Assembly (NCBI GenBank): GCA_905178155.1
Contig: CAJINV010000005.1
Location: 5,349,038-5,413,037 of the forward strand
DNA: 64,000 bases
Direction of reading: 5' to 3'
Source: Amoebophrya sp. A120
Taxonomy: Eukaryota; Protista; Dinoflagellata
The notes under the pieces are model-generated. The model saw only the letters and a program-made list of their open reading frames with translations, was not told the DNA's origin and ran no database searches. Of this stretch, positions 19,480 through 54,639 are shown in pieces. The translations under genes and the position numbers were made by a program. The number at the start of each line of letters is the position of its first letter. Position 1 is the stretch's first letter.

Positions 19480-22400
19480 ATGGGCGCCGGAGACGAAACC
19501 CCCATGGAGCAGCAACAGCTGCAGGCAGAGGATGCTCTGATTGATGCGGGACAGGACGCCGAAGCGGAAAACCAGCTATGCTCGTATGTGAAAATTATGA
19601 ATTGCAAAAGTATCGTATGTTGCTTAGTAGTGCAATACAAATTAGCTCAGCATGACACATGAAATTTGTCATGCTGATTCATTTACTTTGAGGAGCAGGA
19701 GACTTGTCATGCATACTTGCGATTACAAGGAATACGACACTTTTGCAAATGATAAAGATCGAGAGGCTGTGTGAATCGGGCGTCAATGTGGCGGATATCG
19801 CGAAGCTGAAACAGGCCTATCCACAGTAAATTTCCTGTACACGTACCAATGCGGTTTCTGCATGACAAAGCTTGCCTTCGATCCTAGTTAGCATGACAAG
19901 TGGCATGCTCTAAGTTGGGAAAATTTGTGATGCATTTTATACGTGTGCGGGAAATTTCCTGTGGATAAGGCCGGTTTCTGCACCACTAACTCGATTGTCT
20001 CCGTAATGCGCGTATGCACTGCATCAAAGGCCGCTGTGTCGCGCTGGTTGTACAAACTGCATGTATCAAAAGCAAGAACTAGATTTGTCATTCTGAATCT
20101 GATTCAAGTAAGGATAAGAATAAGAAAGTAGATTTCATCATTGTAAAAATCCCATACGTCAACAAGAACTGGTACGCGAACACGATACAGCAGCTTTTGC
20201 AGAGGATAGCACAAGGACTTGGTTGCGGTCAAGGGATTAGGCGAGGCGAAAGTGGACAAAATCATCGAAGCGGCCTACAAAACGATGGTATAATACGTAC
20301 GAATGATGAATGATCGTTTTACTTTTTAGGAATGCAAATTCATGCCGTTTTCGGATGACAGAGCCAGAAGTTGAAGTTCCACGCATGATATTCGCATGAT
20401 GATGCTGTTTTGCATCAGAGATTGTTACGCTTCAACATCAACATCAATATCGTGTCGATACCGCAATGAATCATGAATATGAAAAAACATTGTACATATC
20501 AGGGTTCTCTCGTCCTCGCGCAGCAGGCCGGGCAGGGCGGCGGCAATAACGGTCCAGTGTCGCACTTTTTCCAAACGGCCGAGGAAGCGTTAGCGAAGCA
20601 CCAATCCACGCGGTTCTTCATCTCCACCGGCGCCAGCTCCCTGGACGAGGTGTTGCGGGGCGGCATCGAGTCGGGACAGATCACGGAACTGTACGGTGAA
20701 TTTCGCTGCGGAAAGATATCAAATGCAAATTGTATGTCTGGGTCTGGAAAAGTGTGAGTGTGATGCTCAACTTCTATGGATCATGATGAAAACGCTTCGA
20801 AAGCAGCCGAGCATGACAAGTCTGCATAACGATAACCGTTTGTCTTCATACGCAGTGTACATGAACAGAATCTGCCTTCTTGTATGACAAGCATGACTGC
20901 GAGGACTTTATTTGTTGGTCATATTACAATTCAATGCAGATTTTCAAGGATGGGAATGTAAGGCCAGCACTAGTACAAGTTGTTAACTTTCCAGCCCCAC
21001 ACGTATTTGCACTGGATAAAAGACGCAACTGTGCCACACCTTGGCGGTCCAGGGGCAGCTGCACGAACAGTTTCCTATCCCACAGAAAAAAGCCGGCCGG
21101 CCATGTTTGTAATGCAAAAATAAATACACAAAAAAATCTTGCATATCCTTAATAGCATGCTACGGGGCCGCCCATGACAGGTTTTTCTGTGTATTCATTT
21201 TTGCATTACAAATGTGACCTGCCTGCTTTTATTTTTCTCTGGGATATTTCCGGGCCGTTGCCTGTACATCGACACCGAAGGAACCTTATGCATCGCAAAT
21301 AAAGCATCGTACTCGTTGTATAAATGCATTACAAATTTCCTCAGCATGAAAAACGAAACTTCTAATGCGGACTCCCCTTAACGCCTAGATTTGTAATGCA
21401 TAGCTGCAATTAGTACGAGTACGATACTTTTGCACAGGATAAACCTTTCGCCCCGACCGAATCCAGGAGATTTGCCAGGCACTCACCGTTATGCATTGCA
21501 AAAGTCTCGTGGTACTCGTACTATTTGTGGTATACGCAGAAACAAATCTTCTTCTTGAGGTAAAACAGCATGACAAATTCCATTGGTCATGCTGAGCGAA
21601 TTTCTATTGCAATAATCACTTGGTACGGTACTTTTGCAATGCATAACCGTAGACAGCGACGAGATTATGGCGAACATTATTACCGGTACAACTAGTCATT
21701 CCACAACTGCTAGTGTATGTAATGGCGCAAACGCATGACAAATCTAGTTTTTATAGGTAAAGCAGCACTACAAATTTGAATTTCTCCTTCATGAATTTGT
21801 AATGCAATTTTGTGCATCGAATTGGACTTGGCAAAAAATATCAACCACAGCCCGCGCCATGACGTCCGAGCACCTGAACCAGCTGCTGAAAGAGGCCTGC
21901 TCCATATGATTGTGCACAACCCCTCCTTCCCCCCCATTTGCAATGCGAATTCCGTGTTTGCACAATTACAGATACCAGTCTACAATAAAACAGCTGCACT
22001 ACATTCGGGGCGTCGTGAACTTGTCATGCACAGGCTCCCGATGTGTTGGTGTTTCTGATGCTGTTCGTGGACCATGAAAATAAGCTGGAGGGGCAGTTGT
22101 GCACTCTGATATTTCATGATGGTGGACGAGTCTTCCGGCCAGTTTGCGATCGTGATCATTGACTCCATATCAAATGCAAAAATGTCTGGGTCTGGAAGAA
22201 TTGGAACTTGTGATGCAAACTCTGGCACACGCAAAAACTTGTGTTGCGTGAGCGCCAAAAGCTGCCCACTTCTTGGTCCGCAAGTAGGAAGTTTCTCATG
22301 CGGGACAGGCATCATGAGGCGTGCTCAAAACCTGTGATGCTTTTGCCTGCATCAGACGCCATTTGCGTGATCCGAAATATGCATGACAAATCTCGTAATC

Positions 22401-23674
22401 TTCCAGACCCAGACATTTTTACATTTGATACTCCATCATGGGCCTGATGCGGCAGGACTTCACGGGTCGCGGGGAGTTGTCGGAACGGCAGCAGTATCCA
22501 TTGCAAAAGTATCTTCGTACTACTACAAACTGCATGACAAATCTTACCAGAAGGTGGACAAATGACATCTTGTAATGCTGAATTAGCTAAGAAACAGAAA
22601 CAGTAAACCAGATCTGTGTCTGTCATGCTGTACTCCAATGCGTACGAGTGCGACAATTTTTGCAGTGGATAAGCAGCTGCTGGGTAAAACGCTGAACAAA
22701 CTGTCCAAGATTGCCCACGAGTTTAACGTCGCAGTTATCCTATGTAAAAACGCCCCCTTTTGGCTGGTGCGCATGACAGATTTGGCCTCGTAAAAATGTA
22801 GTCGCGTCTAGCTAGTACTGCAGCAGCATCACAGATCCAGTTTGTCATGCTGATTTGAGCATCACAAATCTCAAAACTTCACTAGAAAAAGCCTCTCATG
22901 CGTCTCCGCATGAGAAACATTTTAAGCATGCAGATTTGCATGACAGCGCTGAGGTGGGGATGATTTTACACAGGATAGCAGTGGTGCTGACCAACCAGGT
23001 GATGGCGGATCCGGGCGGCTATCAACTGCAAGGATGTCTGGGTCTGGAAGGATGCAAGGTTGTCAATGTCATGCTTGTCTGGCATGACAGAAAAACTTGT
23101 GATGCGCGTCCAACAAGAGACGACCCTTCTACTTGTCATGCGAAAACGCAGCTTGTCATGCGGAAAGCGCAGCACTATCATAGTGTTCTATCCGAGCACG
23201 TACTATTTCTCATGCTCTGCTGTGCATGACAGGTGGATATTGTCTGTTCACAACCCAGCATTACAAGTTTCCAGACCTCCCAGACATATTTGCACTGCAT
23301 AGCGGCGGTGTGGGTGCGACGTTTAACGCGCCGCCGAAGCCGATTGGGGGCCACGTCCTGGCGCACGCGTCTACGGTCCGGCTGTACTTCCGGAAGGGGA
23401 AAGGCGACGAGCGTGTCGTGAAAGTGATCGACTTATGCATTACAAAAGTATCGTGCTAGTGAAAATCGCATGACATCAAATCTTTTTGAAGAACAAAAAT
23501 AAATGCAATTTGCAATGCTGTTTGCGCTTCACACCAAAAACCTGTCATGCATCATGATTGTGATTGCTACGAGTGCGATACTTTTGCAAGTCATACGACT
23601 CGCCCAATCTACCGGAATCCGAGTGCACGATCCAGCTGTGGGCCGGCGGGGTGCGGAGTCCCGAGGGGATGTGA
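19480..23674 (+). CDS. DMC1: Meiotic recombinase DMC1 (RecA/RAD51 family); 16 exons
   Basis: Reconstructed motifs: [11 protein letters not shown], Walker A GEFRCGKT, YIDTEGTFRPDR, Walker [52 protein letters not shown] and ADPG are DMC1-type rather than RAD51-type. Confidence 0.88.
19596..19754. mobile_element. TIR intron element F2
   Basis: DR aaaat/aagat; joins YVKI-ERL. Confidence 0.85.
19818..19967. mobile_element. TIR intron element F6
   Basis: DR aggcc/aggcc; joins LKQA-GFCT. Confidence 0.9.
20013..20208. mobile_element. Degenerate TIR intron element (F2-like)
   Basis: tatgcactgca / ttttgcagaggata; DR gcgcg/gcaca; joins [10 protein letters not shown]. Confidence 0.7.
20288..20502 (+). 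other. GT-AG intron retaining G-TAT...ATA-NNAG geometry
   Basis: gtata...catatcag; in-frame join KTM-GSL. Confidence 0.7.
20717..21018. mobile_element. TIR intron element F3 inside Walker A
   Basis: DR aaaga/aaaga; joins CGK-TQLCH. Confidence 0.92.
21076..21246. mobile_element. TIR intron element F8
   Basis: DR tttcc/tttcc. Confidence 0.9.
21287..21441. mobile_element. TIR intron element F2
   Basis: DR aacct/aacct; joins DTEGT-FRP. Confidence 0.92.
21490..21645. mobile_element. TIR intron element F2
   Basis: DR accgt/accgt. Confidence 0.9.
21686..21850 (+). other. GT-AG intron with F2-like interior (element relic)
   Basis: gtac...cacag; contains gcatgacaaatctagtt and tttgtaatgcaattt; joins IIT-ARAM. 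Confidence 0.75.
21905..22111. mobile_element. TIR intron element F1
   Basis: DR ctcca/tttca. Confidence 0.8.
22168..22430. mobile_element. TIR intron element F3 next to Walker B
   Basis: DR ctcca/ctcca; joins IIDS-IMG. Confidence 0.92.
22495..22671. mobile_element. TIR intron element F2
   Basis: DR agcag/agcag. Confidence 0.9.
22736..22977. mobile_element. TIR intron element (singleton)
   Basis: tatcctatgtaaaa / ttttacacaggata; DR gcagt/gcagt; joins NVAV-VLTNQ. Confidence 0.9.
23020..23301. mobile_element. TIR intron element F3
   Basis: DR gcggc/gcggc. Confidence 0.9.
23434..23595. mobile_element. TIR intron element F2
   Basis: DR cgact/cgact; joins VID-SPNLPE. Confidence 0.92.
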
Positions 23675-25439
23675 GCAGGACTTCTACCTAGACATCAGAC
23701 GGGTGCTTTTTATTCTACAACTTCGGAATAACATTGTGTCGTACTACAAGAAGTCGGGGTGAACAAAAGGTGCTAAATTTTTGTGATTATTTTCAACGAG
23801 TAGGTAGGCGCGAGTACAATAGTTGAAAAAAGTATATAATGAATCACTGTCAACATCGGAAGGTTATTATACACTCCACAGCCACGAGATCTCGAGAATA
23901 AAGAATCGATTTACATTTGAGCAGCCGAGATTGAAAACTGCAGAGACAGATTTGAGAACTTTAGGTTACAACAAGTGGCGAAGCAAGCCTACAAATTTAT
24001 CAAAACTACTAGTATAAAAAACGCTTTAATGTCTTTCCAAAACGACGAGCTTCCCAGTGTCATCTTTATTCCAAAGAACACCCGTTGGGTTCTCGGTGGA
24101 CACGGGAGAACTACGGAGAACTTTTGACCAGTTTCATTTTGATACAAAAACAAAACGAATAAAACGCGTCGACTCAAGTACCAGAGACGAGGACGTCGTC
24201 AGAAAATTGATCGCTATTTTGGTTTTCTTCTGTTTCAGAACTTTTCAACTTCCGTTTCCATGTTTCTGTCGTTATTTTGTGCAATTTGCAACATGCACTC
24301 AACCCTAAGTAATATCCTATGGTGAGCTTTTCTTTTTGTTTGTTTCAGGAACTCTTTAGAAAAAATAAACCTTTTGTCCTTCGAATTCGTGGAAGTAGGA
24401 ATGTGGAAGATTCTTACGAAAACTTTTCGAACTGAATTTGACCATCGAAACCAGTTTTGCGCGGCTTGACGTTAGAATGTAAGTAGTTAGAAAAGTTCCA
24501 ATAAGAGTACTCAGCTCTCAGGTCGTTCGGAAAATTGCAGTAAAGAAAGGGCGGGAAGATGCTGAGGACGAGTAGCTATGTTAGCAGTGTGAAGACAGCG
24601 AATCACTGTTGAGCTGCTGCTCGCTTGTCTATGCAATGAATGACCCTGCTGCTGGTCGTTTTAGATTGTTTTTATCGCTCGTCCTCGCAAAACAGCGGAG
24701 AGGATGTCAACAGCTGTAGCAAGTCTGGTTGATTCTGGCTCATCGGAAGAAAACACCACTACGGTTCAATTTCTTCCCTCAAAAACCACTTGTGAACTCT
24801 TTTTGCAAATGAAAACAAGAAAACAGTGATTGGCTTCGAGTAGTAAACTCGTCGCAGCCGAACAACTACAGAGTGATGGGATGTCTGCATGGGGTGATAA
24901 AATTTTGTTGTCGCACCAGAAAATGCTCAATCTCTTTATTCCAGCTCATTGTTCAGATGCAAGTCCCCCGTCGTAGTGTGTCACTTACACAACAACGGTC
25001 GTCGGTTAGTTTCTTCTTCCAGCGTCTCGTCCTCAGCCTGCCCGGAGGTCGTGTGTCGCTCGGTACATTAATTATTAATCACCGACGACGAGAACAATTT
25101 GTTGATGAGAGAGACGGCTGCATTAACACTTGTTCTGGAAGCTGATGGTGAGCAGAGCAGACAGCCCTCTCATCTGGCAGCTGCTGCTGCAACATGATTC
25201 TACTGTTGCAAGAAGCTGAGCCGAGCGATAAGGTCTTGAATAAGTTGAAGAAGTAAATTTTTGGTCCGATGTTCAAGTTCATATAGTAGTTATCGAGCGG
25301 AAAGATCAAATCGTCACGATTGTTGCGCTTCTACCGGTGGATCAGACCGACGCTGTATTCCTTCAGAAGGCAGCACCAGCCGCGGAGACGTCCACGGGAG
25401 CTAAGACGGGGTCGTCGAGTGGTGCGCAAAGGAAAAAAA

Positions 25440-28400
25440 ATGATGAAGAACGCTCAGCTGGTGAACCAGCACGACAAAGTAGGTGATGGCCATGAAGGTA
25501 GTCATCCTCATCACTGCAAGACCGAAGCTCCTGCTCCCTGCAGGAGCTCCTCAAGCAGCTCGTCCGAAGATTATACTCCGCCCGAAATTACCGACAACTA
25601 CGCCATCCAGCTTCCGCCCCTCGGTGCCGGGGCTTTTGCCAAGATTCTGCAAGCCACCTGCCGCAAAACCAGCGAGCCGCGGGCGCTGAAGCTGATGAAA
25701 CGGTCGAGCTACCAGAAGAGGCAGTTGGAATACCAAATCGACGTGGAGCTGGAGCTAGCGGAGCTGTGCGGGCGGAAGTGTAGCAACGTGATATCCGTTT
25801 TGGATATTTTCGATGACAGTGAAAATGTGGTGATGGCTATGACAGAGCACAGCTACAACTTCGCATTTCTCTCATTTTCTCATGCAAAACCCCAAGCCCA
25901 TGCCCAAATCCCAATCCCATCGGTACCTTGTGCTTGTAGCACTGTTCGCATGACGCCCAAACGATACTTCAACATTTTTCTCGTAAACTTGTCAAGCACA
26001 AGCTGCTCGTGGTGTGCGAGTGTTTGTATATGCAGTTAATGCCAGCATACAGATGAGGCGAGGGACGTTCAAGTTGTGCACTCTCATAACAGTGCTGCCG
26101 AAAGCGATTATCGACTTGCAGAAGGGAACACAGAAATTGCTGCACATGCGCGAGCAAAGGCAGATCCAAATGGAAGAGGAACGATTGCAGCTCCTGCAAC
26201 GAGGAACTGGTTGCGTCGGCACGGCAAGGAGCAGTAGAGAAAAGGCGGACTTGCACTGCGACGCCAGCGAGGCCGGGGCTGGGGGTGCAGCAGCTACTGC
26301 CGGGGGGCTGTTTTCCGCGAGGATGGCAGGTACTTATTTGTGGTTGATTCTGGTGCTGTAGCACGTGACTACGAGCAACCAACAGAGCAGAAAGTCAGAG
26401 CAGAGACCTGCACTTAGTCATGCAGACCGCGGAATACACTAGCACCAGCACGGCAGGAGTGCTACGATTTTTTCTATAAATTGGAACCCGATGCTGGATA
26501 TGTTGTGTAGCTGCTTGTGGAAGTCGTGACGGCGAAGCACATCATCGAAGAAGTGAGTAGCTATGTATTTTTCCACTAATATGACCTACGACAGGTGGCG
26601 GCGCTTCCCAGCCAACCACCTTCCCCCACCACCAGCGCAAGAGCGGCAACCTTTTCGGTGCGTCTGGTCGGACGACGTCTGCCTCTCACGCGCCCTCCTA
26701 TACCTCCAACTCTGCGCGAATAGATGAACAAAGAAACACGAAGAACTTCAAAGACCAATCTCACAAGCAGAAGCACTACCCCGTTTGGGGCGAAAAATTG
26801 AGCATTCACCTGTGGAAACAACTGTTAAACGCTGTAGCGTACATCCACGAGTGCGGGGTGATTCACCGAGACCTGAAGCCGGAAAACATTCTGCTGTCGT
26901 CGGTTGCAGGACGAAGAGGGACGGCTGCTGTCGGAGGGAACAACAAAAGTCGTCATCCTGATACTCCGCTATTTGGTACTTCTAGCAGCTCTAGCTCTTC
27001 ATCAACATCAAACTCGGGTAGTTCAAGTTCTTCATCCGCTACTACTAGTACTGCACGGACAACATCAAGTGGAGTGCTTGCTGGGACGAACAGAATTATA
27101 AACGCAGGCAAAGCACAACAAGGTGGTAGCTCTTTCACTATGCCAGGCACAACTACAGCTAGAACGTCGGAGCAGCACCCAAACGGAGAAAAAGACGATG
27201 AGGAGACGAGGTTTTTGAAAAAGTTTTTGAACATCAACGAGAACATTCATGTCGATGATGAAGATGAACTACATCACCACGATAACAATATCTTCGACGC
27301 GTTGATCCACGACGTCCACCTTGAAGTCGCAGACTTCGGCTGGTCGACGAAAATGCACAAGAACGTCGGCCGGGCGCTGGCGGTATCCTGTGCAAAAGTA
27401 TCGTACTCGCATAAATGCAAGTCTTGCATTTACAAATCTTTTTCTTAAGGTAGATCCGCATGACAAATTTTCTCTCTCATGCTGAGGAAATTTGTGATGC
27501 ATTTACTTATACGAGTACGATACTTTTACTTTTGCAGTTCATAGGCGGGCACGTACATCTACATGAGTCCGGAAATTCTAGACGGGCGGAAGCACTCGCC
27601 CCAGGCGGACCTGTGGGGAAGTGGCATGATCTTGTACTTCGTGCTCTTCGGAAAGCCGCTACTGGATCAAGGTACTATCTGCTTGATGCGCCTTTGGGAA
27701 ACAGAAACCTTCACTACAAGATCTTGACGGAATCACAATGCCTGACCCTAGAACTGAGTGCAAACCTGCACCTGCACAATTTTCTCCTGCTCGTTGCGTT
27801 AAGTATTTTGAATCCTCTTGCGCACGTTACCATGCCTGCTGCAAAATGCATCAACTTTCTTCATGACAGCCATTATTGGGCCCGGCGTGACGCAACTGAC
27901 GGCGCAAGAACCTGTGCGCTCGGCGCAATTTATCGGATAGAAAATGACTGTAGTGTAGTTGAGTCAAAATCTAAGTCATGTCATTTTGGTTTCATCCATA
28001 CTCTGTAGTCATTATTTCATCTTCGCTTCAGAGAAAAAATGCATAAGAGCAAAATGCTCCTGGTCCCGCTTATTATCGGAACGCGTTCTTCTTCATCTTG
28101 GTATCAACTATCAAGGGCTCTTGTTTATTTGACTCGACTACTTTTGCAATCCACACCCCTGCGGGCGCGAATCGTGCGGGAAAAAATCGATAGTGTGTGT
28201 CCGCTGAAGTATCCTTGCGAAATTCATTGACTTGTTGCAGGCTGTTCATGCAGAGGTGATTTGGAGTTCCTGTTTTGTGCCAGACAGCAAAACGTAAACA
28301 CAATTTTCAAGAGGTGAACTACTATGCCACGTTGTGCAGTCTTCCTTGCAAAAAGCCAGAAAATTTCGCTTCCATATCGGAGTTGAAGATAAGCCTGACT

Positions 28401-30445
28401 GGCTCGAGAGCTGGGATTTGTGGCTGCAGTTACGAGATTTGCTTTCCATCGTACCCGCGATTCGGCCAGATGCAAAGCGACTGTTGGAGCAGCAAATGGG
28501 TGGAGTTTGTCATGCGGATGCGGTTTCGCAGCATCAGCAGCAGCTGGACACCGGAACAACATCAGCTACCGGCGGACAAGTTCTTGTGAATAAAACGACG
28601 AAAAAAAATGGGCGCAGAGACAGCAGCACGGGGACTACAAGCGCAACCGCTTTGAGGATTACACCCAGAGGAAGCAAGAAGGACAATGGGATTGTGACCA
28701 AGAATAAAACGTCCTTGGGCTGCTCCCAGCTTCATAACAAGACAGCAAGTAGTACCGGGGGTGCGAAACGGAAATCAAACGCCTCCACGACGACCGGAAC
28801 TACGACAAAAGCAGCCGGGACAAGTACATCGTCGACTGGAGGTGATTCAGCGATAGAGCCTCATCATGCTCAGTACGGTTCCTACGGTAAAAGGAAAACA
28901 TCCACCCTCCAGCAAGGAACATCAAAGCACTCTTACGCGACTAGCAACTCGACGTCGACATGCAATGTACTTGGGAACTCCTTGGAGGCTGTTGACAATG
29001 ATACTGTTTCTATCGCTGAGACGAGTGACCACCACGACACAGAGCAAGAAGGAGCCGAGTTATCCTCCGACGAGCCGCCCGTTCCGGCACCCGAAAACTC
29101 CCGGATCATGCTGGGTATGCAGGATGACCTAAGCGACAATGAAGAAATACAACGCAGTATTGCTGGACGTCGAGAGGGTCTGAACGAAGACGAAGACCTC
29201 GAGGCCGCTGTGGGCTCGTCGTTGTTGTCAGCAACCGCCTCCTCCGCCTCTTCCACAGCCGTCTCTTCTCACCACTGGTCTCAAGCGTGGATGAGCAGCC
29301 GAGGAACAAACAATCACAACTCCAATAAGAACACTCTCGGTGCTGCTACGCAACAACAGAAACAGCACCAGCAAAAAACGCCTCCATCTCCGGTCGTGGC
29401 TGGAATGATCCCCACTTTGATGTACGACGATGAGTCGCAGACCATCGTGGAGGAAGATGCGAACTCGATCGACAAAACCCCCACGTCACAGCAACAGGTT
29501 GCGACGGGGTATGTCGTGTCCTCCGGTCGGGCGGAACTGGCGCCCCTGCAGTCGCGCAGCAGCGAAAAAGATCCTGCCCGCGAAGACTTTTCTGGGCCAC
29601 CAGCTGCAACTACAGATGAAGCTGGAAAATTGAACTACAGCACTACTTCCCAGTTGCCCCGCACCCGCGAAGTCTCAGCAACGGCCCCTGGATCCGTAGT
29701 CTCGGGTGCGAGACAGACGTCTGAGAACGAGGGAGCGCCAGTGGCTACCACTAGTACCGCGGCCGCACCATCCAGTGGCAGTGGTGCAGGGGAACTACAA
29801 TATCCAGCTGCTTTTCCCTCTCGACGTGGTGGCAACACATTAAAACAGACAAGTACTTCCAACCGTAACTCCCCGCGGTCGGAACAGCAGCAAAACCAGA
29901 ATTCGAGTTTGCTGTCGAATCACTCCAGCAGCAAGCGGAGGAAAAGCAGGCGAACCAGCAGCGCAAGTTGCACGAATTTGAATAGTGCTGCGGGGAACAG
30001 CACCAGTGTGGGAGCAACTCCAAGTGGAACCACCGCAACTCGTACAGCAGCGCAGGAGAAGACAAGTCTCCTGAACGGGCGGCGAAGTGAAGCGAATTTG
30101 CACGCGTTATTATCGAGAAATGGTCACGCTGCTCCTGGAGCCGCAAGGGGAAATAAAGAGAGCGAGGACGTGTGTGCAGAAGAAAATCAGTCGGACGAAG
30201 ATGTGCGGCGGGAAATCTCAACAAGTACTAGAATGACGAAGAGCACCGAAGGTGGAAATCAGTACCACAAGCACGGCGCTTTCAACAAAGAGAACGCAGC
30301 TTCTAATTTCGGCAGTAGCGGTACCAGCGCAACTACTGCGAGGAGTTGGAGTGCTCTGTCAACCCGAAACACAAACAGTACGACAAATCTCTTTCTCCAG
30401 TTGGACCCGCAGGCGAGGCTGCAGCGAGTCGGGGCGCCGGGCTGA
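25440..30445 (+). CDS. Ser/Thr protein kinase, Aurora-like, with large inserts and long low-complexity C-terminus
   Basis: LGAGAFAKI, RALK, IHRDLKPENIL, ADFGWS, GTYIYMSPE, ADLWGSG; two TIR elements plus probable GT-AG introns (e.g. 26330-26723); exons in 27670-28340 not resolved. Confidence 0.8.
25838..26088. mobile_element. Degenerate TIR intron element F1
   Basis: tatgacagagcacagct / agttgtgcactctcata; DR eroded atggc/acagt; joins VVM-VLPK. Confidence 0.75.
27384..27543. mobile_element. TIR intron element F2 in kinase activation loop
   Basis: DR ggcgg/ggcgg; joins LA-GTYIYMSPE. Confidence 0.92.
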
Positions 30446-31558
30446 GAGGAAAAGGAGAATTTTGGACGAAAAAGAAGAATGACTATGACATATCATGGCT
30501 TCCAGTTGTATGAATAAGAAAAGAAAGAGCTGTGAGTGTGACTTGCAATAGGAAGATGGGAAAGCTTTTACGCTGTCGTCACTTGAGAATGTGTGTTTTT
30601 TTCAAAGAAAATTCTCCGTCTGGATTTTGTGAGCGTGCTAGCTGCGCAGCCGGAGGACACTATGTATCTGCTTCGCTGCAACTCGTGCAGTACATCATAC
30701 AAGTACTAGAGAGTCGAAAAGATGACCTGGTATTGATGGTCCAAGCACAACTGCGTCTCATCTAAACATAGACTGCTTCTCCTTCGGTTCTATTGCCCTT
30801 TGCGATCGCCACCGTGAGATGTGATGTTCACGTTGTCCAGCTTTGGTTTGATTTCGTGGCTTCTTGTATCTATTCCTCGTCAGCGAAACAAGCTTTTTTC
30901 GTCGGTCTACTTTTCACAGCCGCTCGTTGTGCCCCTGCTTCAAGATTTCATTAGTCGGTCGCTCACATCAATGATTCGTATTCGTACACTATATGTGATG
31001 ATTCGGTTGCTCCTTTGCTTTTCGTACACTGGAGTCGGCTGCTTTCGTACACCGCATTCAATATTGGTTTATTGCGCTTTCGGTTTCGTGCGTTTAATTG
31101 TACCGGGGGCGACGTTCTTCCTCATGCCGCTGGAACGCCTGGCTGGCTCTATGGTTTTGCTCCATAGAAGATTTTTTCGTTGTCGTGCTGGTCGTGCAGC
31201 CCCGAACGTACAACGAGGAGGACGCGGATTCTCATATTTTCGTCCTTGTCGCGCAATTCAAAAAACTCTTTTTATTATTTTCAGGTTTTGACCACACGAA
31301 AACCCAAAAACTAAAACTCAACTTTAAACGAAAAAAAAAAATTTTTGGCTGTCCCCACAACGCAAAACTTTTCTTGAAATACTTAGAGAACATTGCGAAG
31401 AAACAAGAAATCCTATTCGGCTTCTGAGAGGAAGAAGAACGAAGAACACAACTTCTACCGCTGGTAAAAGCACGACTTCAACATCGGGAAACCACCACAG
31501 TACATATCTCTCTCCCGAACAAGCACCAGCCACTGGAGCCCTACAACGACACGCCATC

Positions 31559-38263: not shown

Positions 38264-38859
38264 TGAAGGAGATACAGAGAGGCTTTTGGGAAAAGTGATA
38301 AGACATAAAAACGTTTTTGAGATAAACAAGGTGGATCAGGAACGAATTCTGAAAAAAATCTGCATAATCAGAGAACCGCATCAGACCAGCCAGAGGGCTT
38401 GAGGAGCGCAGGTTTCAGTAGTGTGAAAGAAATAACAATAAGAAAAAACCGCCCCAGTGACAGTGAGGTGTACGTGTGCCCCTCAAACGGAGAAGATTCG
38501 TCTGCAGCATCTTGTCGTGGTGTTTTTCCGTCGTGTTCCTCTTTCTCTAGTAAAGAAGGGTAAAGAGACGGAGACTTCTTGCTTCTTCCGTTTGTGTTGA
38601 GAGAATACCTAAAGTCAGAAATCTATCTTTTGCGTGCGCAAGAAGTTTCTCTGCTCCACTCAGATCACGACTGTACGACGAGCGAGATCCACGAAGCCCG
38701 GTCTCGTGTGAGCAGAGGACCATCTTTAGCACACGACGCGGACTTCTTTCGTTCACGTCGACATCTTGCTGTGAGCAAGATCTCAGAATAAATTTTTGTC
38801 CTTCTTCTACCAATTTTCTTTTAGTTGATCCCCAACTAGTACACACGGAAAAAACCATT

Positions 38860-41039: not shown

Positions 41040-42170
41040 GAAAAAAATCAAAAAAGGGAAAATCAATAAACGAGTCTGTTAGAACGTAAAATAGGCAGCT
41101 TTGATACTTCGAGTCCAAAATGTAGTCAATTTTTGGGGGTACCTAGAATTTAGTAGATTTGCTTTGATGCAAGCGCAGCGCGCAAATAGAAACTACACCG
41201 TGATACTCTTGATTGATGAGAGTTTTTAATATACCATTTCCAATCGGAACAACGAGTAATACACCACCAGCCATTTCTTTTTCTACTCTACACTACTCTT
41301 GGTTTTAAAAGGCAAAGAGCAACCAAGAGCCGCACAAAGACTGCGGAAAGGATGAAAAAACAATTGATGGATCTTCCAACCAGGAGGCAGGAGCTACTTG
41401 TTGGGAGGTTTTGTCAGGACAACAAGCGGACTGCAGCATCATTCTGCACTTTTTTTTGAAAAAACGGTTGAACAACCAGCAGCAGCAGCACAGACTGCTA
41501 TAACCGGCGAAACAACATTTTTCCTGCGCCCAAGAGTGAAGAGTCTCCTACTTGTTCTCAGTGTCTTCAGTAGCTGTGTACACAGGCCCGGCTGCGTAGA
41601 ACAAACTTACTTAGAGTACTCTTCCGGAAAAGAAGAAGAACTTGCGCGGCCACAGGAGCCGATTCGGAATTTGATCCTGATCTTCACACGCAGCTCTGCA
41701 CAGAGCCGCAAATTCATAGAACTGTGGTACAACTTGGACGCTGAAACGAGGCAATACAGGAAGATCTCCTTGATCAGAGACAGTGTGGATCATCATCATC
41801 TTCAGGACTAAGAGAGAAGGTAATATCTGAGAGTCAGCATGATCATGGCCATAGATTATAATTGCCCCGCATGAAGACCATGATGGGGCCTAGCACGACG
41901 ACGCTCCTCTGTTGGATCAGACGAGTTGTGGGGAGCGACTCCACGGCGAGTTTAACCTCTGTGAAGATGATGCTATTTCGGCTATACTTAGATCTTGACC
42001 TTGTGCAAAAAAATCTAAAAGGCCACGCATGATTATTGCGACTTTCATATGATCAAAGACCACACGAACAAGCCTCCCTACCTCCGAGGAACTGTCAGAA
42101 GGGTTTGATAAGTAAGTACTTCTACTTAGATACCTGCTCCACCTCCATTACGGACTACATCATCTACAAG

Positions 42171-45100
42171 ATGCCGTCGCCTTGTTCGCGGCATTTTTGT
42201 CGTGCCGGGCAACCACTCTCCTTACACGACCTGTTGCTCGTTCATTTTTTCTACTCGTTTTTGTTCTTCGGCAGCTTCGACGCACTCACCCCTTGGAAGT
42301 CGCCCGTGTTCATCTTCTCGGTGCCGTTCTTCGCCGCCGGCGCAGCTCAAGAAGATGCCACTACACTAAGGCGCCGCAAGACTGGAGATGATGTCGTGCA
42401 GGATCATCTTAATGCTGCAAGACGACTGGAGGCGGAAGCGCAAGTAGTTGCAGCAGGAGCAGCTGCACCCCCACTGATGAACATGTACATGGCGGCACAA
42501 CCCGCGACGAAGAACCCATGCGAGCTCGCAGCTGACGCTGGACAGGATGGAGCAGGTGGAAGTACGACAATATCCCCAGCCGCAAAGCAGGCCGGTGTGG
42601 ATTTGGACGATTTGAAGAACCCAGAAGTCGATGCTGGCGCGTGCATAATATGAGAGTGCACAACTCCCCCTCCCCCTCATTAGTATTGCATGAACAGCAA
42701 TACAAGCACCAGCACACGTGGCGCCTGTGCATGACAAATTCACGTGCCTAGTGTAGTAATGTTTGGGCTTCGGGAATCTGTGATGCAAACAGTACCAAAG
42801 GGAGGCGCTTGGATTTCGAGTTTTGCATGACAAATGAGGGGGAGGGGGACTTATGCACTCTCATACATAAACGCCGCGTACTCCACGATCTTCGACGAGG
42901 AGAGGCACGGCGGAATATCCCCTGAAAATGAACCATCCCCATCCAATTTCTCATGCAAAACATGAAGGAAATTCTCTGTTTGTCATGCAAAAAATGGATG
43001 GGGATCATGGTTAATTTTCAGGAAATAGGGAAACCGAAATGCTGCTAGTCACCTCTGGGTGAGCTGGGCCACCGAAAGACTGCGGAACAAGGAGGTCGAC
43101 TTCGATCGGTGGCTGGACTTGATGCGGAATTTCTGTCCGGTGTCGGGTTCACCACTGGGCGGCGGCGGGAACGTGATTAGATGGAATAGCGTACCACAAG
43201 AAAAAGTGTTAACGTTAACGGAATTTGTCATGCAGTAATGCATCAGAAAAGGTGCCCACATTTGTATTGCGTAGCATGCATGGAAGGCAAAATTTGTAAT
43301 GCTTAGCTGCCAACTGTGAAAACCGTTAACACTCTTTTGCTTGATATAGCGGGCCCCAGGACCGACACCGCCTGCGGTCAGTCGCCAAAAGCGATACAGT
43401 ATGAACTGCAAATAAAGTATCGTACTCGTGGCAATCGCATTTATGCATGCCAAATCTCTTTTTCAAGGTAAATCAGCATGAAAAATTCCATTTGTCATGC
43501 TGAGCAAATTTGTAATGCGCTTACTACAAGCTACGATGCTTTTGCACTTCATATACAGACGGGCAGGCCATTCCGCCGGGAGAAACGCACCACTGTTGCG
43601 TTCTATGAATTGCAAAAATGTCTAGGTCTGGAAGATTGCAGCTTGTCATGGTAAATCTGAAGCATGCAAAAGTCTGTGTTGCATGAGTTCCAAAAGCTGT
43701 CCACTTTTGACCAAGTTGGAACGGAGTTTCTCATGCAGAAAAGGCATGGCAGAGGCCTCGCAGAGTCTGCCATGCTAAGTCCCGCATTCCAGACCTCATG
43801 GGTCATGGAAAATCTGCATGACAAGTTGCAATCTTCCAGACCCAGACATTTTTACACTTGATACGTTCCCTGCGTCTGCGATATGGACACGCACGTACGG
43901 GTGGATACCTGGGTATGGAAGCGTCAGGTTTGAAATCGTCAAAGTTGAAATAATTTGTAATGCATAAAATGCATGACCCGCGGCACGTGTGTTGCAGAGC
44001 AGGCAAGTGAGGCCGATTGTAAGCCTGTTTGGGGTTACAGCTCGAGCTGCTAAAGTAGCATGAGAAAGTCGCCCTTCTTTGCCTAAACAGCATGACAGAG
44101 TGGATTTAGGGACCACCGAAATTTGTCTTGCGCCACTTGGAAACTGGGTTCGTTCCAAGTGGCATCCATTTTATGCATCACAAATCATTTCCACTTTGAG
44201 GATTTCCATTCTGAGGGTGTCATACTGGGTTCCGAAAGACAAAAACCAGCAAAGTCTGATCCCGGCGGACTACAAGGGCGGGCAGGTGGAAGGAATATGC
44301 ATTGCAACAGTATCGTACTGGTAGTATGAATCGCATTACAAATTTGCTCAACATGACAAATCATGGAACTTGTCATGCTAAACTACCTAAGAACAAGAAA
44401 CCAGGCTTGTCATGCTAGTTTGGCATTTAAGTATACGAATACGATACTTTTGCAGTGCATAAGGAAATCCCCTCGCGAATTCGGAGTTGGTACTCTACGC
44501 ATTGGTGATCCGGGACCCGTGCGCGGCGCATTCGGAGCAGTCACACGCAAGGAAGAAGCTGCATTGGCTCACTGGAGATGGCGAAGATGATGAGAAGAGC
44601 GAGACGAGCAGTAGTACAACTGCAACTGGTAGTGGCACGACTTCTTCTTCGCAGAACAATAAAAACCATCGAAAGGCTACGGAAAATAAAGTGGAAGAAA
44701 AACTGGACGTCATGATGGCAATGGCAGGAACATCATCTTCAAAAAAGCAGTACAGCCCGGCTCCGGCGATCCTCTGCGAAGACGATGCGAAAAACCCGGG
44801 GAAGAAAGGTTTAGAACCAGAAAAGACGGAGAGGAGTGAAAACGGTTTTGTGGTCATTGGCCTGTACTTCCCGACAAGTTCCTCTTCTTCTAACAATGCT
44901 GCAGCTTCCTCCACAGGTACTAGTACTAGAGCCGACGGTGGTGCGGGACGAGTGGCGGATGATGCTTCAAGGACCGCAGACGAAGCTTCGAGTGTGGAGG
45001 AATGTCAGCAGCGGCAAGCCGGGGGCTGTGCCACCAGCGGCATGGGAGCCATTTTCATTCAGGCCGCCTGCCTCGGTTTTGCGCCTGACGCACAGATTAC

Positions 45101-47134
45101 CGCAACAATCGCAGACGATTTTTGGACCATGCCGAAAGCACAATGTGAATCCAATCTAGCCGACAAGTGTTTCGACAACAAGAAAGAGGGCCAAGACAGC
45201 GGCTCTCAATTTCTGGAACTAGACCACATGAATCTGGCTAGCTACCACATCGCTGGGAGGGCGCATCTGGTAAAAAAAGGAGGATATTTTGTTTTATTTC
45301 GCGTGATGTCCTGCTGGAGGAGTGCTTCGACTTCACATATTACGGCACAAAAATTGAAATTCTGCCTTGCATATTGTAAGTACATAAATTATGAAAATCC
45401 GATCAACCTACAAACACACGACGACCACCAGGTGTACCAAAGCACTCCTTCCCGTGCCACTGTCGTTCTTCGCGGAAAATCTTCTACGCAAAGCAAGACA
45501 CTCGTCGAAACACAACTCGCCCAAGCGTCGTCGTTGTTGCAGGACCGGACATTGTTGAAAGAGCATCGCGTACGGAAAGAACTTTCAGAAAAGAAGATGG
45601 CGACCCGCTATCCAGGGCGGATTCGGACGAACATACAGAATTCCAACCCAGAGACGCCCGCCAGTGTGGTGAGAGGGGAGACGAAACTGGCGAAGGAACA
45701 TGAAAATAAATACGAGAAGGCGATGACCACAGGGGGACCCCAAGCCGAAGCAATAAACCAGCAAGACGCTCCTGCCGGAACATCAAGTGGTGACATCAAG
45801 GAAAACGAGTTTCTCCGAGGACGTAGAGGTTTGGCGAAGGACACAGTTCTTAGGAGTGGCTTCGACATCAAACAAGATGCCCGCCATCACGACGACGACC
45901 TCCGTGTCCGTGCAGCGGAGTATGATGCAAAAGAATACTATGCGCAACCTGCCTCCACCTCATCCAGCGACACCCGCAGCACCTTTTTCCACGGAGTGAA
46001 AACAAGCCTCCCCGCTTACTGGCTGCGGTTCCTGACGAGGTCCGGAAATAAGAACAAGCATGAAAACAACGAAGAGCACCAGAACAACAAACAGAGACAG
46101 AGAGCGACCTCTTCTGCCGAGGACAAAGTAGATCTTCATAGAACTTCCGCCTCTATATCGTATCTCCACACCCTCGTCTACTCTCTCCCTACCGGCTGTG
46201 GGACGACGACCAATTCGGGCGAAACTACAACTCTCGAGCAACAAGCTGCCTGTTTCGAGAAGTTCACAAAACAAACCCTGACACCGACCCTGAAGAACCA
46301 TTTATTTCCATCTGACGGAAATAAAGTAGCGAAGGAAGCGCTGGAGAAGGTGTTTCTGCTGTTCGACGAAGGTGGATCGTCTTCAGCAGGCGCTGGTGAC
46401 CGTCGAGTAACTTTCCGCGTTTTGGAATTAGACGAGGAAATCATGTTTGGGGATGCAAGCAAAGAGTTATGAAATGCAAATATGTCTGGGTCTGGAAGCA
46501 TGGAACTTGTCATGCTGTTTTTGGACTCTAAAAAAATTTGTATTGCATGACCAGCAAGAGGGGCACAGTTTGTGCTACACGGACAGGTGCATCAGGAAGC
46601 CCTCTAAAAGTCTGCGATGCTAGGTCATGCATTACAGGCGTCATGGGTCGTGAGAAATATGCATGACTAATCTTGTGCTTTTCTTCCAGACCGAGACACT
46701 TTTGCAATTCATAAGAGTTGTTCATGAGCAACCTTTATGTACAACCGGAAGGCAGCAGCACTAGTGGTCCCGGCGATCCAGCTTTTTTTCCTCCATCCAA
46801 CACCGACGATTCTTCCTCCGAAACCGAGAACACGTTCCTGTTGCTCTTCTTCATCGTCGCAGCCGGGCTCGGCCTGTACGGGTTGCTACGGCGACGGATG
46901 CTGAACATCGGGAAGATGAACGTGCGAAGATCTACTTCAAGCGGGCAGTTGGCCGGGACTTCGAGCAGCGCAAAGTCTCCTTCCTGTGCTTCCAAAAGCA
47001 GTGGAGAATCGAGCACTGCGCCCATGGTCGTGCAGATGAAGAAGACGAGGAGCAGCAGCGGTGCTGCTGGTCGAGGTGGAGCTGGTTCGACAAGTAGCAC
47101 AGGCGCGTCCGTTATTGGGCGTCGCGAGGAGTAG
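42171..47134 (+). CDS. Cys-rich type-I membrane protein, paralog A; 9 exons
   Basis: Hydrophobic N-terminus; GNRNAASHLW, NFCPVSGSP, HHCCVPCVCD, YALVIRDPC, NGFVVIGL, SGMGAIF; C-terminal TM FLLLFFIVAAGLGLYGLL-RRR; eight elements removed in frame. Confidence 0.8.
42649..42865. mobile_element. TIR intron element F1
   Basis: DR cataa/cataa. Confidence 0.9.
42916..43027. mobile_element. TIR intron element F5
   Basis: DR cggaa/gggaa. Confidence 0.85.
43192..43346. mobile_element. TIR intron element F7
   Basis: Starts TAC; DR tagcg/tagcg. Confidence 0.88.
43400..43553. mobile_element. TIR intron element F2
   Basis: DR tacag/tacag. Confidence 0.9.
43604..43863. mobile_element. TIR intron element F3
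   Basis: DR cgttc/cgttc; joins HHCCV-PCVCD. Confidence 0.92.
43914..44224. mobile_element. TIR intron element F9
   Basis: DR ctggg/ctggg; closely similar to 58097. Confidence 0.9.
44296..44461. mobile_element. TIR intron element F2
   Basis: DR aggaa/aggaa. Confidence 0.9.
46468..46713. mobile_element. TIR intron element F3
   Basis: DR agagt/agagt; joins KE-LFM (uninterrupted in paralog B). Confidence 0.9.
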
Positions 47135-47959
47135 CAGGGGTTGAAGCGGGTGGAGTTGTGAAATGAGGATTGAGGCGCAGCAGCAAATCAAAAACAGTGG
47201 AAGATGATGAATAAACGAGATCGAGATATTGAAAGAAATGATGCGTACCAAGTATGATCATAAATGATCGCTCCCTAGTACTACTACAGCCTTGTTTTTA
47301 GTGGGGACCGAAAGTAGAAGAAGATATCGAGAAGCATGTTGTTTGTGTTTGTAGATTTTGGTCCTCGTCCAGGACACACAAGGCGACAAAACAAGGCCAA
47401 CAGATGAACGGCGGACACAGAAGTTTTAGCGCAAGCGAAGGGTGTATGAATGTTGTGGTCACGCGGCCATGCATGCGTCGCTGTTGTGCTCTTGTCACCG
47501 CGCAAGCGCAACAAAATTGCAATTTTTACTAGGTAAACAACGTAGTTTTGATTTGAAAGCTGCCTTGGGAACAAGTAAGTAAGTAGATGCTCCAGTCTGG
47601 TGCGCTAATCAATCCTGCTCCAGGCCGCGCTTCCAGCGAACAACAGAAAACCAAGAGCCTTAGCAAGGGCTAGGTACAACCAGATAAACGAAGCAAGAGG
47701 GTGGAGGAGGAGGAGAGACAGAGCGAAGAAATGAGCACAGCCCCTGTAAATATCGGGGAGCAGGAGTGCCAGTAGGTGTGTATGGTAGAGGACGAGTGGG
47801 CCGCCGCGGTCTGGACACCATGCAGGCGAGACCTGCCCACCTGCTGTGATTATTTATGCGTTTTACGGGCAGCTGCACATGCTACGCCGTGCTTACCAAG
47901 GTAGTATGTAACAAAGTTGTCCTTATTTTGTTTCCAGCACCGCGCACGGGCACGACATC

Positions 47960-50900
47960 ATGTCGCGGCATTCACGGCACATCCCGTCCTGGCTCGTCTC
48001 GTTGCCGTTTGCCTTGCGTCATGAGCTCCTGTGGTCTCGACAGCTTGTCTATCCAGGAGAAAACACCCATCCCCAACCAATTTTTGCATGACAAACACTG
48101 GAGCTTGTGCATGTTTTGCATGACACATTGGATGGAGGTGGGTGTTTTTGTCTGGATATTGTCGCCGCGCAGGACGACCGAGTGGTGGTGGAGCCCAAGA
48201 CAGGCTCGGCGCCGCCAGAGCAGCAGGCCGGCGGTGCTGGATCTGCACCTGAGCCACAACCAGAAAAACTCGTGCTCGTGGATGCAGGAGCGGAGGCGAA
48301 AAAAAGGGCGGAGCTATCCGTTGTGGATTTGAGTACAAAAATCACATTCACCGCAGCCACGTGCTCAATTTGCAAATGCAATTCGCAATCGCAACGCCCG
48401 CGGAAGATCAAATAAACGAAGCAAAGTAGTAAGTACGTAGTTGAGTTCAGATTTCATCGCATTGCAACATTGCAGATTGATGCGAGGTCGTTGCGGTGTA
48501 ACCGTGATCCCGGTTTTCCCCTGGAGAAGAATGCGACCAAGCGGGTTTCACCAACGACGCCACTGGAGAGTGCATCAGCCAGGGGTATGACACAGTGTTC
48601 GACACTATCACAGCAAAAAGTGTCAACGTTAACTGCATTTGTGATGCAGTAATATGCATCACAAAACCTCCTGCCCAAAATTTGCCATGCATAGAATGCA
48701 TGCTAGGCAAAATTTGCCATGCATATTTGCAATCTATGAAAACCGTTAGCGTTTTTGTTTGATAGACACCGCGCACGGCAGCAACCGCAACGCCGCCTCG
48801 CACTTGTGGGTCTATCCTGTGCAAAAGTATCGTATTCGTATTGCAAATCTTGCATTACAAATCTTTTTGTTAACTCAAATCCGCATTACAAAATTTATTT
48901 CTCATGCGGAGAAAATTTGTAATGCATTCATACGAATGCGATACTTTTGCAGTTCATAGGGTCACCTATCTGACAAACAAGTTTCGGGACGAGACCATCG
49001 AGTCGGCGGAGGTGTATCTGCGGCAAATGACGAACTTTTGCCCGGTGTCGGGCTCCCCGCTGACCAACGGGGGGATGCAGTTGCAGTACTCAAATTTGAT
49101 ATAGTACCTACAAGAAACTTGCGGTGACAGTAGTTCTTGGAGGAGTTGCTACTTGTGCTTCTTCTAGAGCTTCAACTTCTCCATCTCATCGTAATTTGAT
49201 GTTGTAGAAGATGATAGTAGGACAAGTCTTGCTCCTCAGAGTCAGAGTTTCGGATTGATGTTGTTGTACATCCTTTTTATCATTCTTCACCCAATGCAGG
49301 TGGACCGCGCCGGCAACCGGTTCTGCTGGTTCCTCGTCTTCCACCTACGGCATCCAACCCGCAGCGTCGGGTGTCACCGTACCCGGCGGCTACTCGCACC
49401 ACTGCTGCGTGCTATGCATTGCAAATCTGTCTGGGTCTGTGCGATATTCATATTTGTTTTTGTATTTATTGCAGCACTCGCAACATACGCATACCCCTGA
49501 TGAACCCTGTGATGCATGTTGTGGAATAGCGCCAACCCTCTGTCATGCAGGGACGCGATATCTGATGCGGGTTACGCACATCAACCACAACATAGCGGCT
49601 CATAATTTTTTTCCTCATGCGTGGCGGCGTATAATTGAAATCGGTTTGCGATGCATGTACTAGCATCCCAACTTTCACCAGACCCTGACGTATTTGCAAT
49701 CCATGCGTGCCCTGCGTTTGCGATATGAACACGCACGTGCGCGTGGATGAGTGGACGCCCAAGAACAAGGACAACGTAGCGCTGCTGAAGAACCACGGAA
49801 CGGTAAAGGATAAAGAGGCAGCTGGCACGGTGTACGCTCTTGTGATTCGGGACCCCTGCGCAGCGAATAAGAACGACTCCGCAAAAGCAAAACTGGCGAA
49901 ATTGACGGGCGGCCCCGCGCCGGCAATCATCTGCGATGGGGAAAAATTTTATGCAATACAAATTTTCCGTACATGTACAAAATGCATCACAAATGTCCCC
50001 AATTTGGAGTGTGATGAAACTTGTCATGCTAAACTAGCATCGAAGCCAAGTTTTGTCATGCAGAGACCGCATTTGTACGTCTACGTGTACAGGAAATTTA
50101 CTGTGGAGAAATTGAAGGCCGGCGAAGTGGAAACTAGCGACAACGGGTTTGTCGTCATTGGTCTCTACTACACCCAAGCCGCTGGCTATCGCAAGAAAAA
50201 AGTGTTACAGTTACACACTGTCTTGCAGGTCAAGCAAGACAGAAAAGCTCTGTCATGCCGGATATGCATAGGAGCCTCTTTTCATAGGTGTTTTCCCGTA
50301 GGATTTCTGCATTCCAGGTTTTCTCTCTCATGCAGGGACATTTGTGTTGCTGAATTGCCTACAGATGTGTAACGGTAACACTTTTTTCGTGGGATACTGG
50401 CCAGTCCGAAACTGCGGAGGCCGCGATGCCGCAGACCGAGTGCGCCGCCCGGTCCTCCGCTGGCTGTGCGCAATCCGGGATGGGAGCCATTTTTATACAA
50501 GTATTAAACTAACAGTACTAGTAAGTACACGTCGCCTGCCTTCCTGTTGTACCGGTTTTTGTGGAGGTGAAACTACAAGCGTGACAAACTAGATTACGAC
50601 ACACGTATCAAACACCGAATACTCCTTACTCATGCAAATGAACATGCACACCGAATACTCCTTACTCATGCAAATGATCATGCAAATGAACATGCACACC
50701 GAATACATCATGCAAATGAACATGCACAACATGATGGTTTCAGGCCGCCTGCTTGGGTTTCGCCCCAGATGCGAGTGGTGCTGCAACGGCACAGAGGAGA
50801 AAAGCTACAGGCTCAGACAGCTTCTGGAGCATGCCCGACGAATATGAAAGTGCACAGCTTTCCCTTCTCCTCATCTGTCATGCAAAAAAACCACCTTTTT

Positions 50901-54093: not shown

Positions 54094-54222
54094 GAAGGTA
54101 GGAAAAGGAGGGGCGTTGTAAGACGCCGAACCGACGAGCCACGCGTCCATTGAACCGGGCCACACTTCAAGTAGTATAAAAATCTTGTGATGGTAAAAGC
54201 AGAAGGAGTAAGTGGCACAAGC

Positions 54223-54598: not shown

Positions 54599-54639
54599 GG
54601 CCTTCTGAGTATCTTTTCATCAATTTCTGTTTCAGTTTT

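Follow-up and report, generated by a model that had tools for sequence, protein, structure and literature searches.

The window, by which we mean the whole 64,000-nt stretch of Amoebophrya sp. A120 DNA analysed here, carries 82 introner elements of the form TAT...ATA (109-329 bp), 59 of them between perfect and 23 between mismatched 5-bp direct repeats; 35 of the 82 begin within 20008..50114, the range of the original prediction. Proteins of the window match named A120 records at 100% identity, and the main features are as follows:

3112..63634, strand not assigned: extent of the full set of 82 catalogued TAT...ATA elements
19480..23675, + strand: RAD51/DMC1-family gene, 375 aa, interrupted by 14 elements and one additional GT-AG intron
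25440..30445, + strand: protein kinase gene with 4 elements and 2 GT-AG introns, 1239 aa
38860..41039, + strand: B9D1 (B9-C2) gene with 5 elements and 1 GT-AG intron, 251 aa

DMC1 was the name originally given to the first gene, for which Pfam gives Rad51; an ortholog search for the kinase found none. The B9D1 model is identical to CAD7951230.1 if 4 or 5 upstream repeat bases are retained, and its modelled mRNA has the same length as the RNA contig (1175 nt). Across seven gene models, all on the + strand (transcript polarity thus coincides with chromosome polarity in the register data), the frame was open after removal of the elements in 68 of 68 cases, with no overall bias in intron phase among these 68 (26/19/23). 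P0001 and P0014, being read-through predictions, were set aside for junctions.

These are the known introner elements of A120, already described by Farhat et al. 2021 (PMC7789003), whose text gives them the same TAT start, seven variable bases and A run, as well as direct repeats (3-5 nt over the exon-intron border), families and splicing. In our catalogue, TAT occupied terminal positions 1-3 in 77-82 of the 82 elements, counted for each position at each end (the search itself partly ensures this), and A occupied terminal positions 11-13 in 68-75. Eleven sequence families cover 65 of the first 80 elements (some tallies use these 80, others the full 82), and 9 families are present in both orientations. 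The 59 perfect repeats compare with a mean of 0.93 and a maximum of 5 after shuffling of the ends, a generous control, as selection for the catalogue partly used the repeat match. Terminal inverted repeats and target duplication, both present, are traits of MITEs, or non-autonomous TIR DNA transposons; the text of PMC7789003 reports that no cognate autonomous transposase was found in A120. A relative's intron-free B9D1 contig has a single target copy at 4/5 sites that aligned. L002, a genomic contig from a relative, carries just the 3' part of B9D1 and was set aside. An interior motif, GCATNACAA, was found on either strand in 72/82 elements; we rejected it as a branch site because it lies on the sense strand in only 64/82, and it is more likely a subterminal transposase site. 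On the sense strand this motif shows a roughly twofold excess of T>C. The overall fold of element 40090 was no more stable than its shuffles (z -0.46).

RNA contig pieces and their lengths revealed the removal of 13 elements from transcripts. The elements are removed from RNA along with exactly one repeat copy and are present in DNA, where contigs of run X6 cross whole elements at single-copy depth (42-46). The kind of this run is absent from its record; since its contigs retain introns, we regard it as DNA, and it may be the assembly's own source sample. Its contigs span elements 39043, 39394, 39753 and 52202 at both repeat copies, and 40090 and 49950 at the upstream copy, showing 0 other letters throughout, and their agreement with the assembly implies that the repeat mismatches at covered sites are not assembly errors. 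Given that elements are kept in DNA and that families occur in both orientations, removal takes place at the RNA level, as originally envisaged. Junctions were taken from the table of contig pieces alone; with a DNA run included, the joint table filled with repeat-derived rows. Raw reads of X10, which bears the same species label, matched element interiors only (95-99%) and no exon, pointing to a different strain, and were discarded.

The register of the junction within the repeat was testable at 12 of the 23 mismatched elements. Intron coordinates are given here for a cut between repeat bases 4 and 5, i.e., from 1 base before the element to 4 after it, together with the repeat pair (upstream/downstream) and the bases that the RNA, homologs or public annotation would have the transcript keep:

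20012..20212, + strand: predicted intron in the RAD51/DMC1-family gene (element 20013-20208, GCGCG/GCACA); the junction has to leave 3 or 4 upstream bases in place, MRK in 4/4 homologs (three near-identical to one another) and the annotated A120 protein
20288..20502, + strand: decayed element (20289-20498, GATGG/TCAGG) with exact GT...AG ends in this register; 3-5 upstream bases kept, giving M as in the annotated protein and 3/4 homologs
21904..22115, + strand: predicted intron at element 21905-22111 (CTCCA/TTTCA); 3-5 upstream bases kept, S in the annotation and T in 4/4 homologs, the alternative being F
25837..26092, + strand: predicted intron in the kinase gene, ends CT...AG (element 25838-26088, ATGGC/ACAGT); keeps 3 or 4 upstream bases, VMVL, on the basis of the annotated A120 protein only
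27930..28159, + strand: decayed element in the kinase gene (27931-28155, CAATT/CCCCT); keeps 3-5 upstream bases, the gap in the annotated kinase being the element + 5
28209..28380, + strand: decayed element in the kinase gene (28210-28376, TGAAG/TCGGA); keeps 4 or 5 upstream bases, K in the annotated kinase, the gap again being the element + 5
39042..39330, + strand: intron in B9D1 (element 39043-39326, TCCAG/GCCAA); retains upstream base 1 and downstream base 5, an RNA contig piece (run X1) stopping at 39038, with F in 5/5 homologs reaching the site
39393..39687, + strand: decayed element in B9D1, ends TT...AC (39394-39683, CTGAT/TTACT); keeps 4 or 5 upstream bases, M in 6/6 homologs, likewise the relative's DNA, the annotated protein and the RNA contig's length
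39752..39966, + strand: intron in B9D1 (element 39753-39962, GAATC/GATTC); keeps 3-5 upstream bases, I in 6/6 homologs, the relative's DNA and the annotated protein
40089..40308, + strand: intron in B9D1 (element 40090-40304, TTCGG/TTCAG); keeps 4 or 5 upstream bases, GWP in 6/6 homologs, the relative's DNA and the annotated protein
49949..50113, + strand: intron in paralog B (element 49950-50109, AATTT/AATTG); retains downstream base 5, RNA contig pieces stopping at 49943 in runs X1 and X4 (one sample)
52201..52345, + strand: intron (element 52202-52341, ACCGT/ACCGC); retains downstream base 5, RNA contig pieces from both X1 and X4 beginning at 52342 and showing 0 other letters

The repeat pairs named in the original prediction all lay where it had placed them (20013-20208, 25838-26088, 39043-39326, 39753-39962, 40090-40304 and 49950-50109), and its residue choices GWP, GI, FQ and MRKDL agree with the homologs. 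Its choice of VMVL in the kinase agrees with the annotated A120 protein, the support being confined to this public annotation, while its argument for paralog B (L, as in paralog A) proved ambiguous by eye, yet the RNA settled that site the same way. Its view that the evidence is weaker for base 5 than for bases 1-4 has to be reversed, as base 5 has direct RNA and bases 2-4 have homologs or annotation. Element 39394 was absent from the sites it named.

Specifically, RNA contigs retained downstream base 5 at all 3 sites that could be read and, at one, upstream base 1, and from orthologs or the public annotation we infer that upstream bases 2-4 are retained in mRNA at 9/9 sites. The upstream bases retained accordingly number 1-4, 0-4 and 0-4 at the three RNA-limited elements, and 3-4 (two elements), 4-5 (three) or 3-5 (four) at the other nine. 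These 12 ranges share a single value, 4, with a chance of 1.2e-4 if the junction were uniform over 0-5. All 12 testable elements can thus be fitted by just one junction, that between repeat bases 4 and 5, as originally predicted, and no element contradicts it. Bases 4 and 5 are jointly informative in 0 elements, and the RNA evidence consists of assembled contigs from one sample, with rare forms dropped by assembly. We consider it highly probable that there is one fixed register, with introns of the form N-TAT...ATA-NNNN.

This register places T, A and T at intron positions +2 to +4, and GT-AG ends arise in it alone (3/80, with 0 in the other five registers). As a class, the elements have neither the GT (or GC) donor nor the AG acceptor of canonical U2-type introns: AG acceptors were found in 9/82 and GT-AG ends in 3/82, leaving 79/82 that are not GT-AG. 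Upstream base 5, i.e., intron +1, was G in 32/82 (by an earlier manual count, 32/81), against a background of ~30% (31/80 vs 30%, p 0.067); with this p value alone, we did not accept G at +1 as a donor signal. The 'GT-like donor' proposed earlier therefore holds at +2 and +3, which the element supplies, but not at +1. Mismatches at +1 went towards G twice and away from it three times. G is skewed to repeat bases 4-5 (64/160 vs 41/160 at bases 1-2, p 0.009), a skew like that of a weak G/G proto-splice site. Among the rows of Table S4 of PMC7789003, 9/9 predominant A120 non-canonical motifs start N-T. No covariation of the first and last intron bases (G:G or A:C type) was detected in our elements (p 0.19). 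The N-T pattern of the tabulated motifs may reflect read-aligner bias, through tie-breaking by spliced aligners.

A is present at +3 and at -7 in 82/82 elements, and the stem partners of these two positions are conserved in 77 and 78 of the 82 (p 0.008). These invariant adenines provide a lead towards a divergent spliceosome; the T>C excess of the interior motif could add to the asymmetry. The U two bases ahead of the -7 A, as in the branch consensus, occurs in 34/80 only. A terminal stem is predicted in 71/80 elements, and the donor bases are paired in it in 53/80, where unwinding would be needed. Other spliceosomes offer examples of GUAUGU donors and of a branch point held constantly at -8; a literature search on the Trichomonas/Giardia branch motif found no paper. 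For A120, the text of PMC7789003 reports U2, U4, U5, U6 and most spliceosomal proteins, and not U1.

We lean towards the hypothesis that the cut after repeat base 4 is fixed and is made by a divergent spliceosome for which the element ends, and not GT and AG, set the position. The inverted repeats would pair and draw the intron ends together; the 5' end, N-UAU(C/G), would act as a donor resembling GUAUGU in which the first base is free; the candidate branch nucleotide would be the A that never varies, seven bases in from the 3' end, and the 3' cut could be measured from it without an AG. Each end of the element reads TAT on its own strand, so that either could act as donor, and as the bases removed always amount to one repeat's worth, any insertion would restore the coding sequence. 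More tentatively, and at somewhat less than even chance, the machine may be blind to sequence and measure from the transposon ends, the TAT...ATA end acting as donor when 5' and as branch site when 3', with cuts 1 base before and 4 after, such that any insertion, in any orientation and at any site, would become a clean intron at once.

A less probable but serious alternative leaves the register unchanged and has the terminal stem, with its 1-base 5' and 4-base 3' overhang, recognised by an endonuclease and a ligase that act independently of the spliceosome, a route suspected for euglenid nonconventional introns. Neither GT nor AG would be required, and the predicted stem in most elements, the function of both orientations, and the failure to detect U1 in A120 (text of PMC7789003) all suit such a pathway, as do euglenid introns, which likewise have a longer 3' overhang and are released as circles (PMC11282704). 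Against it, the register matches the canonical donor frame (T at +2, A at +3), in which decayed element 20288-20502 reads GT...AG, removal persists in decayed elements whose ends are broken (39394), and pairing alone does not predict conservation specific to two adenines. It is improbable that the junction instead shifts about inside the repeat, usually lying after base 3, 4 or 5, per element or per molecule, such that perfect repeats conceal the floating and mismatched ones merely seem fixed. The legend of Fig. 3 in PMC7789003 does call splice sites variable relative to the hairpin, and contigs would conceal minority forms; a junction uniform over 3-4 is compatible with the data (p 0.125), and one uniform over 3-5 is disfavoured (p 0.039). 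However, three elements demand at least 4 upstream bases, five at most 4, and 12/12 are compatible with 4, and the published variability would be expected from alignment ambiguity in perfect repeats. Excision from DNA by a somatic transposase before transcription, for which one might cite the inverted repeats, 5-bp duplication and families that make the elements look like non-autonomous DNA transposons, is largely refuted and almost certainly wrong, as DNA contigs cross whole elements at single-copy depth and an orientation-tied cut would fall between bases 1 and 2 in about half of them, against 9/9 that need at least 3 upstream bases (0.5^9 = 0.002).

Introners of Micromonas, Symbiodinium, Chrysochromulina and Florenciella (PMC9860276, PMC11282704), which recruit splice sites out of the duplicated target, are likewise cut inside the duplication with mRNA length unchanged; in those introners the cut is determined by GT/GC and AG, which also limit the sites that can be used, whereas in A120 the element ends set its position. 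Euglenid nonconventional introns (reviewed in PMC11282704), from an unrelated lineage, share the terminal stem, duplication-like repeats, non-canonical ends and longer 3' overhang. Their stem, however, lies at +4/-6 with CAG/CTG (+4 to +6 pairing with -8 to -6), compared with +2/-5 and TAT/ATA in A120, and their pyrimidine/purine junction is not seen in A120, where exon -1 is a pyrimidine in 28/80. Transposon-derived non-canonical introns of Fritillaria borealis (reviewed in PMC11282704) share inverted repeats and target duplication, and their removal is attributed to a changed U2 spliceosome; AG-AC/AG-AT ends dominate there and an exonic TAC is preferred, whereas A120 places almost no constraint on the first and last base.

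In this marine parasite, over 60% of introns are non-canonical, and the text of PMC7789003 left their borders and splicing mechanism open, describing the A120 element border as 'variable' or 'unknown' with 'no clear splicing signature'; a 2024 review goes no further than suggesting an altered spliceosome. The fixed register and the polarised adenines are unstated in the examined passages, legends and table rows of PMC7789003, and its figures (Fig. 3, S19-S23) may show part of them. A fixed register would supply one rule for tens of thousands of 'variable' borders, allowing gene models to be corrected, and would be a first exact rule for this splicing process. It predicts the 5' end of the excised RNA, the branching A and the overhangs that would be offered to a nuclease. 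If the machine is truly blind to sequence, this would explain how coding sequence could be overrun by a DNA transposon with so little penalty.

Exons of three genes in the window are 100% identical to named Amoebophrya sp. A120 proteins:
19480..23675, + strand, RAD51/DMC1-family gene
25440..30445, + strand, protein kinase gene
38860..41039, + strand, B9D1 gene
The TAT...ATA elements catalogued here, named by start coordinate, fit the A120 introner description in the accessible text of PMC7789003, and A120 elements have been revisited as transposon families (PMC12130899, accessible part); the introner elements themselves are already known. Starting from 76 candidates from a TAT...ATA inverted-repeat scan, we removed six with fewer than 3/5 repeat bases matching (restoring 25838) and two with wrong ends (restoring 8050 in corrected form), and brought in decayed-end elements via profile, motif clusters and gene models. 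The final catalogue of 82, which may be short of further decayed elements, holds 59 with perfect 5-bp direct repeats and 23 with mismatched copies.

Within 38800-53100, the stretch with which four sequencing runs were compared, elements are removed from RNA and retained in DNA. Contigs of X1 and X4, two runs of one sample classed as RNA by automated guess, jump over elements and lack GT-AG introns too, and those of the DNA run X6 cross entire elements at a depth of 42-46. The B9D1 RNA contig (1175 nt) has the exact length of a model losing five elements plus one repeat copy each; the 529-nt interval that separates two contig pieces of paralog B requires loss of seven elements and 520 nt of other introns (two GT-AG introns, 243 + 277 nt); and the skip at 46468 is 251 nt, or 246 + 5. 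Deleting each element with five bases left the frame open for 68/68 elements in seven + strand gene models, the other 14 of the 82 lying outside them.

Mismatched repeats reveal which copy is kept. In B9D1, G at 40090 and M at 39394 require upstream base 4, and I at 39753 upstream base 3, each in 6/6 homologs and with identical bases in a relative's intron-free contig, as the original prediction had proposed for G and I; the annotated protein equals the model only with 4 or 5 upstream bases kept. At 20013 in the RAD51/DMC1-family gene, MRK in 4/4 homologs (two independent lineages) demands upstream base 3 and downstream base 5, the latter predicted from MRKDL; upstream base 3 is also required at 20289 and 21905 (homolog and gene-model comparison). 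The kinase requires 3-4 upstream bases at 25838 (in keeping with the predicted VMVL), 3-5 at 27931 and 4-5 at 28210, all read from annotation only, which in A120 can err, as where protein P0008 enters element 23020. The public A120 protein CAD7951220.1 runs into 23020-23301 and loses its C-terminus; removing the element gives a 375-aa protein whose end agrees with orthologs. P0014, a 95% identical protein of another assembly, compared with 60097-61660, likewise reads into element 61581; a sister strain therefore has the same insertion.

The contig piece table sets ambiguous RNA joints leftmost, and 6/6 unambiguous checks concur (44461, 45268/45431, 46461/46713, 49704, 52821, 40853). Among the joints listed, three are mismatched sites (39753, 39394, 40090, 42916, 50843 and 51970 also fall within the stretch, outside that list). 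At 39043 the RNA piece ends at 39038, so the RNA keeps upstream base 1 and takes base 5 from the downstream copy; in both X1 and X4 the downstream copy also supplies base 5 at 49950 (piece ending 49943), as predicted for paralog B, and at 52202 (piece starting 52342, no other letters).

The kept-base ranges of twelve mismatched elements share one value, four upstream bases, which is the junction first proposed (the 4|5 register: bases 1-4 upstream, base 5 downstream). This test covers 12/23 mismatched elements; among those left out (7742, 10828, 15167, 15632, 19596, 42916, 50843, 51970, 59149, 61581, 63441) the repeat difference is synonymous in 8/11. Both orientations are present in 9/11 families, among co-oriented genes. 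A cut following element orientation would give 1|2 in about half of the elements; 9/9 demand at least three upstream bases. We infer that the cut is polarised by the transcript, and only infer it, because the gene models are all + strand and no family is informative in both orientations.

The register implies introns of the form N-TAT(C/G)...(C/G)ATA-NNNN. These are non-canonical: 32/82 begin with G, 9/82 end in AG and 3/82 are GT-AG. The GT-like donor originally suggested held in its G count (about 32/81 there), but G at +1 taken alone shows no significant excess (p 0.067); G at repeat bases 4-5 reaches 64/160 vs 41/160 at bases 1-2 (p 0.009, one among several comparisons). GT-AG introns arise in the 4|5 register and no other, and the decayed element 20288-20502 now reads as one. 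Every one of the nine predominant A120 motifs in Table S4 begins N-T (PMC7789003, accessible part). Such starts fit the 4|5 register. Aligner tie-breaking may underlie them.

A at +3 and A at -7 are present in 82/82, their partners altered 5 and 4 times (p 0.008), and an A-run deeper in the element decays equally at both ends. This uneven decay, from nine events, is only a lead because an interior motif carries a roughly twofold sense-strand T>C excess. In seven multiply mismatched, and so older, elements that differ at base 3 (20289, 25838, 39394, 20013, 28210, 27931, 21905), position -2 is A in the intronic copy of 4/7, with CAG twice, possibly a slow drift towards canonical acceptors. GCAT(G/T/C)ACAA, found in 72/82 interiors in both orientations, also lies inside some GT-AG introns (e.g. 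21686-21850, 4279-4439), which suggests older elements turned canonical introns.

As to mechanism, we lean slightly towards a divergent spliceosome. In the accessible text of PMC7789003, U2, U4, U5, U6 and nearly all spliceosomal proteins are reported for A120, with U1 undetected. Yeasts, Giardia and Trichomonas have GUAUGU donors, which N-UAUG resembles, and the branch point of Entamoeba invadens sits at a fixed -8 (10.1101/2022.06.08.495308, accessible part). A terminal stem is predicted in 71/80 elements; it might pair the intron ends in place of U1, with A at -7 as putative branch nucleotide. Other introners also cut within the target duplication, but there GT and AG fix the cut (PMC9860276, accessible part). 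A nuclease and ligase that recognise the stem, a route suspected for euglenids (accessible part of PMC11282704), is a weaker though real contender. That the junction floats is improbable. Were the junction spread uniformly over positions 0-5, the twelve ranges would agree by chance with a probability of 1.2e-4; the figure is 0.039 over 3-5, 0.031 over 4-5 and 0.125 over 3-4. Excision from DNA, given that X6 contigs run intact through elements, is next to negligible.

By eye, some 50 bases upstream of element 54300-54549, which lies inside a short duplicated stretch (54221-54597), recur after it, and short tandem repeats occupy 50620-50730 within a paralog B GT-AG intron. In paralog A (42171-47134), 8/8 elements are phase 0 in the 4|5 register, possibly by chance; phases are even across seven genes. 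In paralogs A (43604-43863) and B (49413-49705) one element each sits in the same codon and in the same phase; the two interiors are little alike, and the repeat copies read CGTTC twice in A and CGTGC twice in B. Either two insertions struck one site, or both copies changed together; if the latter is true, repeat identity would be under selection.
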